This document shows positions 15,399 to 52,428 of a stretch of 64,000 bases of DNA, piece by piece. Below the pieces are notes generated by a model that saw nothing but the letters and a program-made list of their open reading frames with translations, searched no databases and had not been told where the DNA came from. The position numbers and the translations under genes are program-made. Numbering within the stretch: the first letter of the stretch is position 1; every line of letters begins with the position of its first letter. This stretch comes from Minisyncoccota bacterium (lineage in GTDB: Bacteria; Patescibacteriota; Minisyncoccia; Phycocordibacterales; BOKC01). The DNA lies in the NCBI GenBank assembly GCA_030583745.1, contig CP129473.1:268551-332550 (forward strand), in the 5' to 3' direction.

Positions 15399-15436
15399 AC
15401 AAAAACTCCCCCTTTAAAGGGGGAGTTTTTGTTTTA
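15396..15436. terminator. Bidirectional rho-independent terminator between convergent genes
   Basis: AAACAAAAA-ACTCCCCC-tttaaa-GGGGGAGT-TTTTTGTTTT. Perfect 8-bp GC stem flanked by an A-run and a T-run. Confidence 0.75.
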
Positions 15437-15868
15437 TCTGTTCCAGCATTTCTTGGAGGCATTCCAAGGACGAGTACCCTCTCTTTCAAAAAGATATCTA
15501 GCGAATTCCATATTTCCTTCAATAACGTGGATATCAAGATTCATTTGTTTGGCTTTGTCAGCGTGGAAATATTCATTAATCTGCATGATCCCAACATCCT
15601 TTGAGTTTTGGACTCCGCGCAAGACATTTCCGTCTTTATCATTCTGCCTGAAGGTTGATTCGCAAAAAGCGATTCTAATCATAATCGGAGCGTCTTTGAA
15701 GTATTCGCGGACGATTTCCTCATCAGTCATTTTTATTTCTTCAGCCAAGGCCGCTTCTACCGCGGCCGTGATACTCGGCGGCTCGTCTCCACTTTCACTT
15801 AACATGACTGCGGGGGCGTTAAGCCCGGTCAAGCTGGTCAGAGTCATTAATAAAGCAATTTTTAACAT
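15434..15868 (-). CDS. Secreted lysozyme-like / lytic-transglycosylase-like protein
   Basis: Signal peptide. Motif CESTF...DVGIMQINE resembles the E-S...G(L/I)MQ core of SLT/lysozyme-like domains. Confidence 0.45.
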   Translation of the reverse strand: MLKIALLMTLTSLTGLNAPAVMLSESGDEPPSITAAVEAALAEEIKMTDEEIVREYFKDAPIMIRIAFCESTFRQNDKDGNVLRGVQNSKDVGIMQINEYFHADKAKQMNLDIHVIEGNMEFARYLFEREGTRPWNASKKCWNR

Positions 15869-16092
15869 ATTATTTTTTTAACAATAAAACTCAACCTTTC
15901 AGTTGAGTTACAAACATCCTAGCATAAACCAAACTTTTTGTCAATGACAAAAATCGTTTTGTGTGGTCTATTTAAGCAAATATATGGCTTAAAATAAGGG
16001 GTTTTAGAAAAACTGGACTATTAGATTATTATCACCGGAAGCTCAATTTCCCCTTGAAAGTTTAATCTCAAATCCACCTTACCTCCAAAATT

Positions 16093-16121
16093 TGACAAAA
16101 CATAATCTTTTGTGATAAGAT
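16093..16121 (+). promoter_or_regulatory. Sigma70-like promoter for the GL-repeat gene
   Basis: TTGACA, 17-18 bp spacer, then TAAGAT, about 85 bp upstream of the start codon. Confidence 0.4.
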
Positions 16122-16213
16122 GGTAAAGGATTTTTGCACATCAAAAAAACAGGGAGCTTGTAGCTTCCTGAACAGCAGAAACACAGCGAACAAACTATGA
16201 ACAGGAGATGGCG

Positions 16214-16825
16214 ATGGACTGGAAGAAAACGTGGTTCTGGATGGGTGTAACAGCCCTTGTGTTCGGGCTCTTCTGGCACATCTGGCACATTTTCGCTGGA
16301 GAAATTCCGGCGATTCGGGAACTTACTATGTCAGTTGGCGACGAAGAAGAGGAGAGCGCAATCTGGACTCTTCCCTTCGCAGTATCCCATTCGTGGGATA
16401 TGCTGGCGGCTCCCCTCTTCGTTCTTGCTTTCTCTTGGCTTCAGTCGAGAACAGAGGAGGGCACAGACGAAAATGACATACTGGTCGTCGGGCTGGTCTT
16501 CGGGCTGGGCCTCGGGCTGGTCGTCGGGCTGGTCTTCGGGCTGGTCTTCGGGCTGGTCTTCGGGCTGGGCCTCGGGCTGGGCCTCGGGCTGGTCTTCGGG
16601 CTGAGCTTCGGGCTGAGCTTCGGGCTGGGCCTCGGGCTGGTCTTCGGGCTGGGTTTCGGGCTGGGTTTCGGATTCAACTGCGGAATATTCTGGACGATGC
16701 CTCTGGGGGCTGTGTTCGGAGCATTAGTCATTCTGCCAAACACCGTCCTGCTCATTGTTCTCATGGGTTTGAGAGAAGCCATCCGAGGATTCTCCAACAG
16801 CAAGGCGGCTCCTTCAGAATGCTGA
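16214..16825 (+). CDS. High-GC membrane protein with 16 tandem GL(V/G/S)F tetrapeptide repeats
   Basis: RBS AGGAG 6 nt upstream of the ATG. Hydrophobic N- and C-terminal segments. Followed by a GC-rich terminator on the + strand. GC content is well above background. Confidence 0.55.
   Translation: MDWKKTWFWMGVTALVFGLFWHIWHIFAGEIPAIRELTMSVGDEEEESAIWTLPFAVSHSWDMLAAPLFVLAFSWLQSRTEEGTDENDILVVGLVFGLGLGLVVGLVFGLVFGLVFGLGLGLGLGLVFGLSFGLSFGLGLGLVFGLGFGLGFGFNCGIFWTMPLGAVFGALVILPNTVLLIVLMGLREAIRGFSNSKAAPSEC
16483..16675 (+). repeat. Tandem 12-nt repeat (GGKCYTCGGGCT) x ~16 inside the CDS
   Basis: Directly visible: ggtcttcgggct / gggcctcgggct / gagcttcgggct units in perfect register. Confidence 0.85.
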
Positions 16826-16830
16826 CACAC

Positions 16831-16863
16831 AGCCCCGCGCGGACAACCGCGCGGGGCTTTTTC
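16831..16863 (+). terminator. Rho-independent terminator
   Basis: AGCCCCGCGCGG-acaa-CCGCGCGGGGCT followed by TTTTT. Confidence 0.75.
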
Positions 16864-17508: not shown

Positions 17509-17964
17509 CTATTCTAATCCTTTACAATTCCCCGCCGGGCTATAGCCGGCCGCTTTTGCCTCCTCAATTGAATTGAAATAAATTTTATTTTCTTCTTTTA
17601 TTCTTTTTGCGCCGGAACACCAAGGAAAATGATACTTGTCTGAAGTTTTAGAACCAACCAAAAGCCCACCGGCTTGTAAACTGATTTGTTCTGAAACGCT
17701 TTGCCCTAAAACCAAGGGCTCATTATTTGAAGCGGTGTCAGACGATAGAGTGGCGACATTGGCCGAAAGAGGAATTTCATTTATTTTTACCGGCTCACGA
17801 TTTTCATCCAAAGCCGAAATCCGACCTAAACCGAAAGAGGCGGTGCCAACCAGAAAAATCACGGCCACAATCAAGGCCTTTTCTCTACCCTCCGATGCCA
17901 CACAAACATTCTTGATTTTTTGTAATGCTTCAGTTATACTTTCCATCAATCTAAATAATATCAT
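17509..17964 (-). CDS. Membrane-anchored protein with C-terminal Ada-type Zn-binding-like domain
   Basis: N-terminal TM. C-terminal YHFPWCSGAKRIKEENKIYFNSIEEAKAAGYSPAGNC matches the YH.P.C...I...N...F.S..EA...GY.PC..C pattern. Confidence 0.5.
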   Translation of the reverse strand: MILFRLMESITEALQKIKNVCVASEGREKALIVAVIFLVGTASFGLGRISALDENREPVKINEIPLSANVATLSSDTASNNEPLVLGQSVSEQISLQAGGLLVGSKTSDKYHFPWCSGAKRIKEENKIYFNSIEEAKAAGYSPAGNCKGLE

Positions 17965-47565: not shown

Positions 47566-47570
47566 CATGT

Positions 47571-47652
47571 GCCCGGGTGGCGTAATTGGTAGCCGCAATC
47601 GACTTAAGATCGATCGCCGTAAGGCATGCGAGTTCGAGTCTCGCCCCGGGCA
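47571..47652 (+). tRNA. tRNA-Leu (anticodon TAA)
   Basis: Acceptor GCCCGGG/CCCGGGC, anticodon loop CTTAAGA, long variable arm. Confidence 0.85.
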
Positions 47653-47654
47653 TC

Positions 47655-47770
47655 AGACCGCCCATAGCTGTCTTGGTAGATATGAAGTTAGGTAACCGCT
47701 ATAGCTGTCTTGGTAGATATGAAGTTAGATGACCGCCCATAGCTGTTTTGGTAGATATGAAGTTAGATGA
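47655..47770 (+). repeat. Three tandem ~38-bp copies of the 5' end of tRNA-Lys fused to a common 22-nt tail
   Basis: The unit (at)gaccgcccatagctgtcttggtagatatgaagttag occurs three times. The first 14-16 nt equal the 5' end of the intact tRNA-Lys that follows. Confidence 0.75.
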
Positions 47771-47843
47771 CCGCCCATAGCTCAGTTGGCAGAGCAGTCG
47801 CCTCTTAAGCGAACGGTCGTAGGTTCAAATCCTACTGGGCGGA
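47771..47843 (+). tRNA. tRNA-Lys (anticodon CTT)
   Basis: Acceptor CCGCCCA/TGGGCGG, D-arm GCTC-AGTTGGCA-GAGC, anticodon loop CTCTTAA, T-arm GTAGG-TTCAAAT-CCTAC. Confidence 0.7.
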
Positions 47844-49669: not shown

Positions 49670-50932
49670 ATGGAAAGTGTCGTGTGGTGGTTGGATCTGA
49701 TTGGTAAGCTAACCCTTGTGATCATAACCTTTCTACTCCCTCTTTGGTTCATTCTTCTGGCTAGGTGGTTAGCCAAAATTGGCGAACAAATCCCGTACCT
49801 GCAGTTCTTCACAGTCGTCAACGAGGGAGAAGCAAAAACAATAACAGTCAACGGAAAGTTTGACAGAGCTATCATGTCATTCACTGGTTACGCTTTCAGG
49901 TGGCAGGTCTTCTCTAGAGAAGAGGAAATTGACTTTACACCTGACGAACTTAGGTGGGCCAAGGAAAGACTGACAGAAGAGAATTCAACATTCAGTTCCC
50001 AACCGAAAAGACAGCAAGAATCGTTGAGCAGAGACTGGCTCAAGAGGGAAGCTGTCGGGGAGCCAGGGCCCTGGGATGTCATCCGTCTATCAGAAAACCT
50101 AGAAATTCGCAGAGGTCAACTCATTCTTCTCTCTAGTTTACCCTTTATAGGCAAATTGGTCGGTGGTCTTCGCTGGGTGGGAATCCTGCCCGGAATCTCT
50201 CACAGAGTCTATCAGATGCCCCGCTTTGCTTGGGCATCTGTCGAATACCGAAAGGATGAGCAAGGAAATCCTACCCACGACAGGGTTGTCGTGCCCAAGG
50301 AAATGTCGAGCTACGAAGTAGTGTTTGTCAAGAGAGATGTCTATCCTGTCATCCTTCGACCAGCAATTGTCGATGAGGGTGTGCAAATAAACCTTGTAGT
50401 ACTCCTGCAAATCTGCAGCAGAAACCCCTTCAAGACCATGCATCGTATTGAGCACTGGTTTGAATCTGTCTCCAACAGAGTGCAAACTAGGTTGAGAGAG
50501 TTGGTTGGCCGAAGGGGGCTTAAAGAAGTCTACGGCAGTGGACCGCAACCCCTACTTGCCGAGGCGCTCTTACGCGAACTTCAGGACATCATTACAGATG
50601 TAAGGATTAGATTCGGAATCCAGATTGACGCTATAGAAATCTTCTCTGCTGAATTCGCTCGAAATACCGACAACGACATCTACATACTCCCCTTCAAGTC
50701 AGAACAGGAGGCACAAGGTATCAAGATCATCGCGAAGGCACGAGAGGAGGAGGCTAGGTTGGTGTTGCGGGCAACAGAACAGTATGGCGGAAGAGAAGCT
50801 GTAGAAACTCGACTCCTGACTGGACCGGACTCCAAGGTAACTACGGTTGTCCAGAAAGGCGCTATTAACGTAGCTCTTCCCCCCTCGTCTCCACCCACCC
50901 CGCCGGCAACCGGCGGTGGGACGGGAACCTGA
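49670..50932 (+). CDS. Membrane-anchored SPFH/band-7 (stomatin/prohibitin/flotillin-like) domain protein (high-GC)
   Basis: N-terminal TM. Central region resembles the SPFH fold (…VQINLVVLLQICSRNPFKTMHRIEH…GIQIDAIEIFSAEF…AQGIKIIAKAREEEARLV…). Pro/Gly-rich tail. Confidence 0.55.
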   Translation: MESVVWWLDLIGKLTLVIITFLLPLWFILLARWLAKIGEQIPYLQFFTVVNEGEAKTITVNGKFDRAIMSFTGYAFRWQVFSREEEIDFTPDELRWAKERLTEENSTFSSQPKRQQESLSRDWLKREAVGEPGPWDVIRLSENLEIRRGQLILLSSLPFIGKLVGGLRWVGILPGISHRVYQMPRFAWASVEYRKDEQGNPTHDRVVVPKEMSSYEVVFVKRDVYPVILRPAIVDEGVQINLVVLLQICSRNPFKTMHRIEHWFESVSNRVQTRLRELVGRRGLKEVYGSGPQPLLAEALLRELQDIITDVRIRFGIQIDAIEIFSAEFARNTDNDIYILPFKSEQEAQGIKIIAKAREEEARLVLRATEQYGGREAVETRLLTGPDSKVTTVVQKGAINVALPPSSPPTPPATGGGTGT

Positions 50933-51114: not shown

Positions 51115-52428
51115 ATGAACATCACCCTTGCGGTTCTCGGAGTTTTGTTTTTCATCTCGATGCTCATAGTCGGGATGGAAAGATTCGTAAACTGGAAACA
51201 TCCTGGAAAACAGGGCGATCGGAGCAAAGGAAAAGGAAGGAAAAGGAAGTCGGATCCCAAACGCCTGAACAGAAAAGTTCTGATTGGTAAGATTGCTGTC
51301 TATATTGTCTTCTTTGGGCCAGCATTATTTGTTTCAATGGCCATATTCTTCCAACTCTTCCACGAGAGACCCGATCGAGAAACAGCCTTCAGTGTGTGGG
51401 CTGTCGTTGGCTTGGCAGTTTTATTTACTCTCATCATCTTTGTTGCGGTGTTAATAACACAACGACAGGGGAAATCGGCAATCAAGTGGGCAATGATCGC
51501 AACTATGATAGCCCTACCAATCTACCTTGTTTGGTACTTCCTAGATATCCACACAACAACTTGGATTGTGATGCTGTACGTAGTAAAAATCCAAGTCGCA
51601 ACTGAAGAACTCGAGTCAGAACACAGGAAAGTCCTGTGGTGGATCACAACAACCATCATCGCCCTTGTGGTCTTCTTCGCATTCTGGTGGCTCTCCAAAC
51701 TCTTCAAAAAGAAAGTGAGGTCAGAAGACGGAACACGTCGTGCAGGTGTTTTCGAAAACACCTGCAGACGGGTCCTAAAATACGACGTAGGTTCAACCAC
51801 GCTCTTCCGGTTCTTCGCAACCGGACTTGTGACGCTTGTCATCATGATCGGCGTCCACTTCCTCGCACAAATCTACTGGCCGGATAGCTGGAGCGGGTGG
51901 CGAAGAAGCGGGGTTGAGTTGTTCTGGATTCCAAATCTGGCAATCCTCCTGTTCTTCCCGCTAATCATCACGTTCCGCCGCTGGGGTTGGCTGCCGGCGT
52001 TAGCCATTGTCGGCATTACAGTGCTTGGTGTCCTCTCCAGCTTGGACTGGCTATCAAGCACGACGTCGACCGACAATGGCAGACACAGATCGACGGCAAC
52101 CCAACCGTCTCAACCACAAGAGTGGCTCTCTGTCGGAGAACTGCGAGGAAAACAGAGCGTCACCACTCTACGAAACCTCTACTACGACGAATACCAGCTG
52201 TCGTACGACATCTGGTATCCCGACAGCAGGGGGAAGCGTGGAGAAGCGAAGCTCAAAAGGTGCATCGAGGACGGCAAGTACTACGGCACCTTTGAATACC
52301 GAAACCCAAGAGGAGAGGGCGATGTCTGGCTGGAAGAGATTCCAGATAGGCCCGGGCACTTCAGGGGTCAGTCCTGGAGTGATTACACTAACGGCGAAAG
52401 GGTCTGGTTCGAGATCAGACCCAAGTAG
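51115..52428 (+). CDS. Polytopic membrane protein (~9 TM) with ~100-aa C-terminal soluble domain (high-GC)
   Basis: RBS AAAGGAG. Multiple hydrophobic helices rich in Trp. No known family recognised. Confidence 0.55.
   Translation: MNITLAVLGVLFFISMLIVGMERFVNWKHPGKQGDRSKGKGRKRKSDPKRLNRKVLIGKIAVYIVFFGPALFVSMAIFFQLFHERPDRETAFSVWAVVGLAVLFTLIIFVAVLITQRQGKSAIKWAMIATMIALPIYLVWYFLDIHTTTWIVMLYVVKIQVATEELESEHRKVLWWITTTIIALVVFFAFWWLSKLFKKKVRSEDGTRRAGVFENTCRRVLKYDVGSTTLFRFFATGLVTLVIMIGVHFLAQIYWPDSWSGWRRSGVELFWIPNLAILLFFPLIITFRRWGWLPALAIVGITVLGVLSSLDWLSSTTSTDNGRHRSTATQPSQPQEWLSVGELRGKQSVTTLRNLYYDEYQLSYDIWYPDSRGKRGEAKLKRCIEDGKYYGTFEYRNPRGEGDVWLEEIPDRPGHFRGQSWSDYTNGERVWFEIRPK

Follow-up and report, generated by a model that had tools for sequence, protein, structure and literature searches.

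This analysis concerns a repeat-bearing gene on contig CP129473.1 (assembly GCA_030583745.1) of a Minisyncoccota bacterium, situated in a stretch of 64,000 nucleotides (nt) that was analyzed as a whole and is referred to here as the window. The gene lies among gltX, an M23 peptidase, a tyrosine recombinase, a weak SLT_3-like open reading frame (ORF) and a DEDDh exonuclease, with an Ada-Zn/'sunset'-like ORF, L9, an S41 peptidase and cysS as further neighbors. Its most conspicuous feature is an array of sixteen contiguous, in-register 12-nt units following the pattern CTG-(GTC/GGC/AGC/GGT)-(TTC/GTC/CTC)-GGG—the top-scoring tandem repeat of the entire 64-kb window, located by Tandem Repeats Finder (TRF) at 16488-16671 with a period of 12, 15.3 copies, 90% matches, 0% indels and a score of 256. 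A preceding reading of the DNA letters without database searches (the sequence-only reading) had recognized this repeat in the register GG(T/G)C(T/C)TCGGGCT from position 16483, which is the same array rotated by 2 nt. We hold with high confidence that the array is part of a genuine + strand gene, which encodes a small inner-membrane protein of an unnamed family; the number of units was found to differ between assemblies of the same species.

Translated on the + strand, the array reads LVVG LVFG LGLG LVVG LVFG (three times) LGLG (twice) LVFG LSFG (twice) LGLG LVFG LGFG (twice), i.e., a succession of L-(V/G/S)-(F/V/L)-G tetrapeptides. Glycine recurs with a period of four in 17 consecutive instances, from G93 to G157, and appears again at G165 and G169 after one miss; the array thereby carries G/A/S at positions i, i+4 and i+8 of a hydrophobic segment. 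A small residue at every fourth position is the classical small-xxx-small, or glycine-zipper, packing code. Both this glycine spacing and an AlphaFold2 model (described below) support the earlier proposal of a hydrophobic, GxxxG-type block placed between predicted transmembrane (TM) helices. The array is also GC-rich with respect to its surroundings, as the sequence-only reading had stated: its GC content is 0.71 and its GC content at third codon positions (GC3) 0.95, compared with a GC content of 0.58 for the gene, 0.41 for the window and 0.35-0.44 for the neighboring genes.

To describe variation at the locus, the window was compared with four metagenome-derived assemblies of the same species (L001, L003, L025 and L026). 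The first three showed 95.9-98.1% identity to the window over 5-15 kb, and L026 showed 97.4-98.0% over 2.0-2.2 kb in two aligned pieces. In the 15.5-kb alignment between the window and L001, the 150-nt bin containing the array displayed the lowest identity—67%, against a median of 97% with a standard deviation of 5%. Homogenized units numbered 16 in the window, 15 in L025 (arranged in another order) and 9 in L026, and the arrays of L001 and L003 were degenerate, spanning 61 and 57 amino acids (aa), respectively, with a polar turn (ELDDG or RLGDG) at mid-block. Subject to a caveat on assembly that is weighed below, the repeat number varies between same-species assemblies, as had been anticipated. 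The suggestion of phase variation did not hold: the reading frame is intact in all five same-species alleles and, because the 12-nt unit lies inside the coding sequence (CDS) and is divisible by three, its gain or loss would not bring about on/off switching. L025 and L026 differ by about 10 single-nucleotide polymorphisms (SNPs) in 4.1 kb of flanking sequence plus a clean 72-nt (6-unit) indel. Moreover, in three other allele pairs of the family, identity outside the array is 100%, and in-frame indels of 32, 8 and 12 aa set the two partners apart, with an additional small indel of 3 aa in the third pair.

The gene also stands out at the level of substitutions, as estimated by the Nei-Gojobori method between the window and L001. 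The ratio of non-synonymous to synonymous substitution rates (dN/dS) fell between 0.04 and 0.24 in 11 of 13 neighboring genes, with no non-synonymous change in the remaining two, and reached 0.5-1.1 over the first 88 codons of the repeat gene and 1.0-1.4 over its whole length—at a dS similar to that of the neighbors. The changes are unevenly distributed along the protein. Residues 21-52, which cover the end of the first TM helix (TM1) and a predicted exposed hairpin, had proportions of non-synonymous (pN) and synonymous (pS) differences of 0.12-0.22 and 0.17-0.25, respectively, between same-species alleles. Codons 1-20 carry no differences between the window and L001, and one synonymous plus one non-synonymous difference in pairs with L003. 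The LPF..SHSWD motif, the second TM helix (TM2) and the linker that follows show at most one difference between same-species alleles, and pN in the C-terminal part (16673..16822) is ~0.08 between divergent alleles.

The sequence-only reading had also pointed to the non-repeat N-terminal part of the product, and this region turned out to define a conserved family. A search with the 205-aa product retrieved 88 proteins, about 45 of which share the non-repetitive N-terminal part and not merely the repeat. Across an alignment of 39 members, L53, P54, F55 and D62 are invariant, and F20, W21, G29, P32, S58, W61 and P67 are conserved in at least 90% of the sequences. A profile of this N-domain (A3, built on the N-terminal 86 positions with repeat columns excluded) matched at least 765 clusters, formed at 50% identity, at E≤1e-3 and 414 at E≤1e-10. 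Among the matches listed, nearly all have the domain at or close to the N-terminus, the proteins being 75-363 aa long, and independent phmmer matches to canonical members carrying SRWWD had E values from 1e-20 to 1e-28. A typical member opens with a K/R-rich start, TM1 (..LIALFWxIWYL..), G-x-VP, a short loop (..IKMTxxWT..) and LPFGISRWWD; next come TM2 (..LIGPIWS..), a charged linker with D/E at its end, a hydrophobic block and a basic tail (..FWxxVxNWLxAK). The block usually follows a period-4 [G/S/A]-L-x-x pattern, in which S, A or C may replace G.

The window protein conforms to this plan. It contains the TM helix with F-W..W followed by G-x-x-P (F20, W21, G29 and P32), the LPFxxS[RH]xWD motif in the form LPFAVSHSWD (aa 53-62) at the junction of hairpin and TM2, and the charged linker SRTEEGTDEND ahead of the 16-unit array—the same layout as in most members. 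Together with P0001-P0004, it forms a window clade that has SHSWD and, instead of the NWLxAK tail, an extra hydrophobic segment followed by REAIRGFS; by the alignment, this clade is a divergent subfamily. Named sources of the family are metagenome-assembled genomes (MAGs) of Patescibacteria labelled Microgenomates, Saccharibacteria, Falkowbacteria or Nealsonbacteria, with a single exception labelled Nanoarchaeia: L012 and L017 represent two family copies on a 382-kb contig, JAQTMK010000001.1, assigned to a 'Candidatus Nanoarchaeia archaeon'. Either the family reaches DPANN archaea or this MAG is mislabelled or mis-binned. Three MAGs have two family copies each; the window has one, and no paralogue of the gene was found elsewhere in it.

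Neither the window protein nor its relatives matched any entry in Pfam, NCBIfam, PHROG or PADLOC, and a Pfam hmmscan of the 39 members gave no Gly-zipper or Transgly_assoc match even at E≤1. Sequence profiles against the PDB returned only chance citrate-synthase matches at E ~0.2, and Foldseek searches of the PDB, run for both the full model and that of the N-domain, reached E values of ~2-4 at best, with a weak connexin-like topology only. In addition, tblastn of the family N-domain against 50,697 phage records yielded no match, the window protein had no record in an exact-product lookup, and a full-text literature search found no description of such a family. By these sequence comparisons, the proteins constitute a widespread, unannotated family of at least 765 clusters, confined in our data almost solely to Patescibacteria-labelled genomes.

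Individual members depart from the common architecture. P0200 (363 aa) ends in an RNA_pol_A_CTD domain, a helix-hairpin-helix module (35.6 bits, cutoff 23.8), and its domain composition would make it a DNA-binding module tethered to the membrane. In P0005, the C-terminus is extended by 80 aa that have no Pfam match. In L023 (2109-2468, Nealsonbacteria label), a non-family, possibly frameshifted N-terminus is followed by 2-3 GLxx units before an NWLLAR tail; this truncated copy is possibly a pseudogene or the result of a sequencing error.

Structure prediction with AlphaFold2, using the family alignment, yielded a helix at residues 3-28, β-strands at 33-40 and 48-58, a helix at 60-81 and a long helix at 87-195, with a mean predicted local distance difference test (pLDDT) score of 80 and a predicted template modeling (pTM) score of 0.30; modeling the N-domain alone gave the same fold. 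The C-terminal hydrophobic segment (residues 161-190) scored a pLDDT of 91-96. The array helix, with block-mean pLDDT values of 69-89, was drawn as part of a single 109-residue rod. Among 71 complete members, the distribution of hydrophobic-block lengths has maxima at 40-47 and 80-103 aa and a trough at 72-79 aa; the two maxima are weakly consistent with two and four passes. Because the N-termini and tails of family members are K/R-rich and P0200 bears a cytoplasmic RNA_pol_A_CTD domain at its C-terminus, the sequences suggest that both protein ends lie inside the cell, in which case the number of TM passes would be even.

The signals flanking the gene are compiled in Table 1, together with the features of the CDS. 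The promoter-like TTGACA/TAAGAT site (a consensus match), the AGGAG and the T-tailed GC hairpin on which the sequence-only reading had relied are all present. The promoter-like site and the terminator-like hairpin are both identical in the same-species locus L001, and AGGAG occurs at the equivalent position in L003 and L001 as well. The stem-loop proper spans 16831-16858, followed by the T run, and may also serve the convergent exonuclease gene. Two start codons were considered, and ATG 16214 seems likelier than 16208 since it is 6 nt away from AGGAG (0 nt for ATG 16208), since homologues begin with MNWKK, and since the codon at the 16208 position is not ATG in three same-species alleles (L003, L025 and L026).

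Table 1. Features of the repeat gene and its immediate flanks, with positions in the window.
Feature	Position	Strand	Basis
Promoter-like site: TTGACA, 18-nt spacer, TAAGAT, TG before the -10 element	16092..16121	+	Consensus match, 10/12
Putative 5' leader, including Shine-Dalgarno AGGAG at 16203-16207	16122..16213	+	Sequence
CDS, 203 aa (205 aa from alternative start 16208), small polytopic membrane protein	16214..16825	+	ORF, homologues
Predicted TM helix 1 (aa 3-28), with conserved F20-W21, then G29 and P32	16220..16297	+	AlphaFold2, conserved columns
Hypervariable segment (aa 21-52), most of the predicted exposed β-hairpin and its acidic tip	16274..16369	+	AlphaFold2, allele comparison
LPFAVSHSWD (aa 53-62), TM helix 2 (aa 60-81) and acidic linker SRTEEGTDEND (aa 78-88)	16370..16477	+	Conservation
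Array of sixteen 12-nt units (aa 90-153)	16481..16672	+	Sequence, TRF, same-species alignment
C-terminal hydrophobic segment (FNCGIFWTMPLGAVFGALVILPNTVLLIVLMGL) and basic tail REAIRGFSNSKAAPSEC, specific to the window clade	16673..16822	+	Alignment, AlphaFold2
Intrinsic-terminator-like hairpin (12 bp, 11 of them GC), then TTTTT	16831..16863	+	Sequence
Antisense mirror ORF, 129 aa, SPKx repeats, judged not to be a gene	16441..16830	-	ORF list

We also inspected the genomic context of the gene and of its homologues. The SLT_3-like gene (15434-15868) is assigned by a weak match below the cutoff (E=0.0013), and a divergent promoter pair separates it from the repeat gene. L001 has the same order of genes, with the block lying among murG, gltX, L27, L9 and cysS, and so do L003 and L025 over the shorter stretches that they cover. 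Around ~17 more distant homologues, the neighbors are unrelated housekeeping genes, e.g., ruvC/PBP1, uvrC/uvrA, SHMT, leuS/tatD or a sigma factor, and no gene neighborhood was conserved across these contexts; the sole recurrence is a divergent uvrC in three loci. This uvrC lies upstream on the opposite strand in L005 (3991-5361, with an intervening 90-aa ORF), L013 (1609-2868) and L020 (208-1821), and its recurrence may reflect lineage synteny or coincidence. Further neighbors of homologues include ruvC, tatD and exonuclease genes. At the locus in the window, we found no tRNA near the gene, no attachment-like repeat, no meaningful flanking or promoter-flanking inverted repeats and no invertible-promoter signature.

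The GC content of the gene exceeds that of its locus in all seven homologous loci checked (L001-L005, L008 and L009), with values of 0.47-0.57 versus 0.33-0.45, and GC3 in these genes ranges from 0.51 to 0.69. In the window, the non-repeat parts of the gene have a GC3 of 0.58, compared with 0.33-0.47 in neighboring genes. Amino-acid composition alone is insufficient to account for the high GC3, and GC-biased gene conversion or codon selection are possible contributors. Since every homologue examined is GC-richer than its locus, the GC excess, like the 12-nt periodicity, is a family trait that does not point to recent import, and recent horizontal gene transfer was rejected as its source. A mobile island was likewise rejected, given the lack of a tRNA and of flanking inverted repeats and the conserved synteny. 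The sequence-only reading had tied a GC-rich cassette to the recombinase, lysozyme-like and exonuclease genes; this association was not borne out, as the block is syntenic in same-species strains with ordinary divergence and the distant homologues reside elsewhere.

Three other features of the window were recorded along the way. On the - strand, a 151-aa ORF (17509-17964) has weak matches to Ada_Zn_binding and to the NCBIfam 'sunset domain' (L20/L17 variants, E 8e-7 to 1e-3), i.e., it encodes a small stand-alone protein with a domain otherwise annotated on ribosomal protein variants. A second tandem repeat (47656-47782; 38-nt unit, 3.4 copies, 91% match) sits between tRNA-Leu(taa) (47570-47654) and tRNA-Lys (47771-47843), in a cluster of four tRNA genes. 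Directly after this cluster, the segment 48000-52500 has a GC content of 0.49-0.50, against 0.41 for the window, and encodes products that look secreted or multi-TM (e.g., 49670-50932 and 51115-52428)—possibly an integrated island.

Several known systems offer points of comparison. The TM glycine-zipper, GxxxG or GASright motif is reportedly a helix-packing motif, and known glycine zippers consist of 2-3 units on one helix face. The array resembles them in having a small residue at each fourth position of a hydrophobic, predicted helix; in contrast, the arrays of this family comprise 16-22 uninterrupted units, are encoded by tandem DNA and vary in number. Gly-zipper_Omp, Gly-zipper_YMGG, Gly-zipper_OmpA, Rick_17kDa_Anti and Transgly_assoc are Pfam families of glycine-zipper or related small membrane proteins. 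They have Gly-rich hydrophobic segments in small envelope proteins in common with the window protein, but its N-terminal domain is different, and with no hmmscan match it is not a member of any of them. Some proteins retrieved through the repeat alone (P0046, P0056, P0061, P0073, P0076 and P0086) use the same GL-x-x tetrapeptide code; however, they lack the N-domain and LPFxxSRWWD and end in an LRxVG..Y.F.H..LQ motif. Their GLxx runs consist of ~5-6 units with polar stretches in between, resembling single TM segments, and two carry Streptomyces labels, one of these being annotated as a 'NACHT domain-containing protein'. These proteins form a separate GLxx-using family, and their resemblance, limited to the repeat, is probably convergent.

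As regards variable repeats, classical phase-variable contingency loci are built on simple-sequence repeats, as in Neisseria and Haemophilus. Like them, the array is an intragenic tandem repeat of high homogeneity that is liable to slip, with a unit number that is polymorphic between close strains; unlike them, its unit is a multiple of three that causes no frameshift, and all observed alleles are 'on'. Size-variable tandem-repeat surface proteins, such as Mycoplasma Vsa/Vlp, provide another parallel. The Borg tandem repeats (PMC9879509) serve as a comparison for in-frame coding variable-number tandem repeats (VNTRs). The array shares with Vsa/Vlp and Borg repeats the in-frame units, the difference in number between close strains and the retention of the protein. 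Their repeats are hydrophilic, disordered and extracellular, whereas the one described here is extremely hydrophobic and presumably membrane-embedded, so that changes in unit number should alter the spanning length or the number of passes.

Taken as a whole, the reading that we favor, and regard as probable, is that of a real gene encoding a glycine-zipper membrane module with length alleles and a variable exposed hairpin. The protein would run from a basic N-terminus inside the cell through TM1 to an exposed β-hairpin, then through the interface motif LPFxxS[RH]xWD and TM2 to a charged linker inside the cell, the [G/S/A]-L-x-x block and a basic C-terminal tail, again inside. The tetrapeptide block may zigzag across the membrane in two to four closely packed, self-associating TM helices. 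The full-length arrays of distant homologues keep a 12-nt periodicity at 70-77% unit identity, and the array would be old across the family and normally degenerate at the DNA level. The lineage of this strain would have homogenized and expanded it recently from a 12-nt unit, by slippage or unequal recombination, overwriting the polar turn that sister strains retain mid-block; gains and losses of whole units would then generate the in-frame length alleles. Within the species, the exposed hairpin and the array diversify much faster than the remaining genome, with the motif, TM2 and linker frozen—a pattern that could stem from diversifying or frequency-dependent selection on a surface-exposed protein, e.g., a phage or partner-cell contact site, or possibly from relaxed constraint. 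The glycine-zipper block might act as a length-tolerant membrane anchor or oligomerization module. With lower confidence, we ascribe to the protein, from its sequence features, the function of a self-packing glycine-zipper module carrying a variable surface loop.

A number of observations weigh against this proposal. No homologue of known function and no structural match emerged from the searches, and the function is therefore only inferred. The single 109-residue helix in the AlphaFold2 model, at a pTM of 0.30, neither confirms nor excludes a zig-zag TM arrangement. The lengths of the hydrophobic block are nearly continuous between 19 and 119 aa, and the shortest members could cross the membrane only once, in conflict with a strict topology in which both ends are inside. 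Moreover, the substitution counts are small (15-20 in 88 codons), and a dN/dS close to 1 is as compatible with relaxed constraint as it is with diversifying selection. The homogenized allele, devoid of the sister strains' polar turn, could be a less functional variant. Finally, the units were counted in metagenome assemblies, where tandem repeats can become collapsed and several of which are clearly built from short reads; assembly collapse is nevertheless not the whole explanation, given that the unit order differs and that L001 and L003 carry degenerate alleles.

This last concern can be pushed further, to the proposition that the differences in unit count are an artefact and that the true allele is uniform, its near-perfect array of 190 nt having collapsed in short-read assemblies. 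Besides the metagenomic origin of every allele, it may be invoked that the accession prefixes of L025 and L026 are adjacent and that a clean deletion, bounded by identical units, separates the two. Yet these two assemblies also differ by SNPs in their unique flanks, the window and L025 diverge in unit order and composition beyond the count, L001 and L003 carry a different, degenerate sequence that is not prone to collapse, and similar in-frame indels recur in three unrelated allele pairs—all of which makes a pure artefact improbable in our judgment. Somewhat more credit, though still as an unlikely account, goes to a low-complexity ORF under relaxed constraint, i.e., neutral repeat expansion in a dispensable protein with differences accumulated through slippage and drift. 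The dN/dS of ~1 agrees with it, as do the erasure of the polar turn in the homogenized allele, the departure of the window clade from the family consensus (SHSWD for SRWWD, and loss of the NWLxAK tail) and the truncated, possibly frameshifted copy in L023. However, the five same-species alleles are all in frame, the promoter-like site and terminator hairpin are unchanged in L001, and conservation is a mosaic, with the near-invariant motif, TM2 and linker next to a loop with the pN given above, which is not the picture of uniform decay. In addition, the family has been kept in at least 765 clusters, with small-genome Patescibacteria MAGs as the named genomes.

The remaining alternatives concern the nature of the product and are far less credible. 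A holin-like membrane component of a lysis or mobile cassette, acting with the lysozyme-like gene, the tyrosine recombinase and the exonuclease, would agree with the divergent promoter pair, with a small, multi-TM product that has a charged C-tail, and with neighboring genes at ~14.5-17.5 kb being slightly GC-richer than some of their surroundings. It is highly improbable in view of the missing PHROG, Pfam holin, PADLOC and phage matches, the strain-to-strain synteny and the lack of tRNA or inverted repeats that would point to insertion or an invertible promoter; adjacency to an SLT-like gene was found in this species only, with unrelated housekeeping neighbors in the other ~17 genomes, and the GC excess is family-wide. 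Least credible of all, and of practically negligible probability, is a true gene on the - strand encoding a proline/lysine-rich (S/T)PK(P/T) repeat protein. The opposite strand does read as SPK(T/P)/SPRP repeats, as had been pointed out, within the open mirror frame listed in Table 1. However, that frame takes its GTG start from within the terminator hairpin, the - strand showed no conserved part outside the repeat, and in the window all three antisense frames are open; open antisense frames of considerable length also recur among the homologues examined because the repeat contains no stop complements. The + strand, by contrast, has a non-repeat N-terminal domain conserved in hundreds of homologues, which identifies it as the coding strand in line with the sequence-only reading; the + strand gene is real and the minus-strand ORF a mirror artefact.

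A further possibility, speculative and very unlikely, takes the predicted rod at face value. The GLxx array would then be a variable-length hydrophobic rod or a self-assembling glycine-zipper polymer, and not an ordinary TM bundle, that bridges to or inserts into the membrane of a partner cell. A continuous helix of ~65-110 residues would be 100-160 Å long, and episymbiotic Patescibacteria might use it to reach the partner cell's membrane, e.g., for lipid or metabolite acquisition, with the unit number tuning the reach (a 'ruler') and the hypervariable hairpin tuning partner or phage specificity. If true, the family would be a lineage-specific cell-cell interface device of genetically adjustable length.

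Under the favored reading of a glycine-zipper membrane module with length alleles, both ingredients belong to kinds already known—the packing motif on the one hand and coding VNTRs on the other. What we found undescribed in the libraries and literature searched is an uninterrupted glycine-zipper array of 16-22 units that is a variable tandem repeat and predicted to be intramembrane, along with its fusion to a conserved 2-TM/β-hairpin domain in mainly Patescibacteria-labelled genomes. Length variation of tandem repeats is well known for hydrophilic surface proteins; here it affects a predicted membrane-embedded part, where each unit gained or lost should shift the hydrophobic length and possibly the number of passes, and intact alleles of 9-16 units were nonetheless recovered from same-species assemblies, those with 9 and 15 units in two assemblies that are nearly identical. 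If these counts are confirmed, they would amount to a natural experiment on the length tolerance of a glycine-zipper membrane domain. The genomes of Patescibacteria are very small, and the envelope of these organisms is poorly understood. Across 15 kb of genomes that are otherwise 96-98% identical, evolution is fastest in the exposed hairpin and the array, which makes this protein a candidate contact site for phages or partner cells, and a candidate marker for strain typing.

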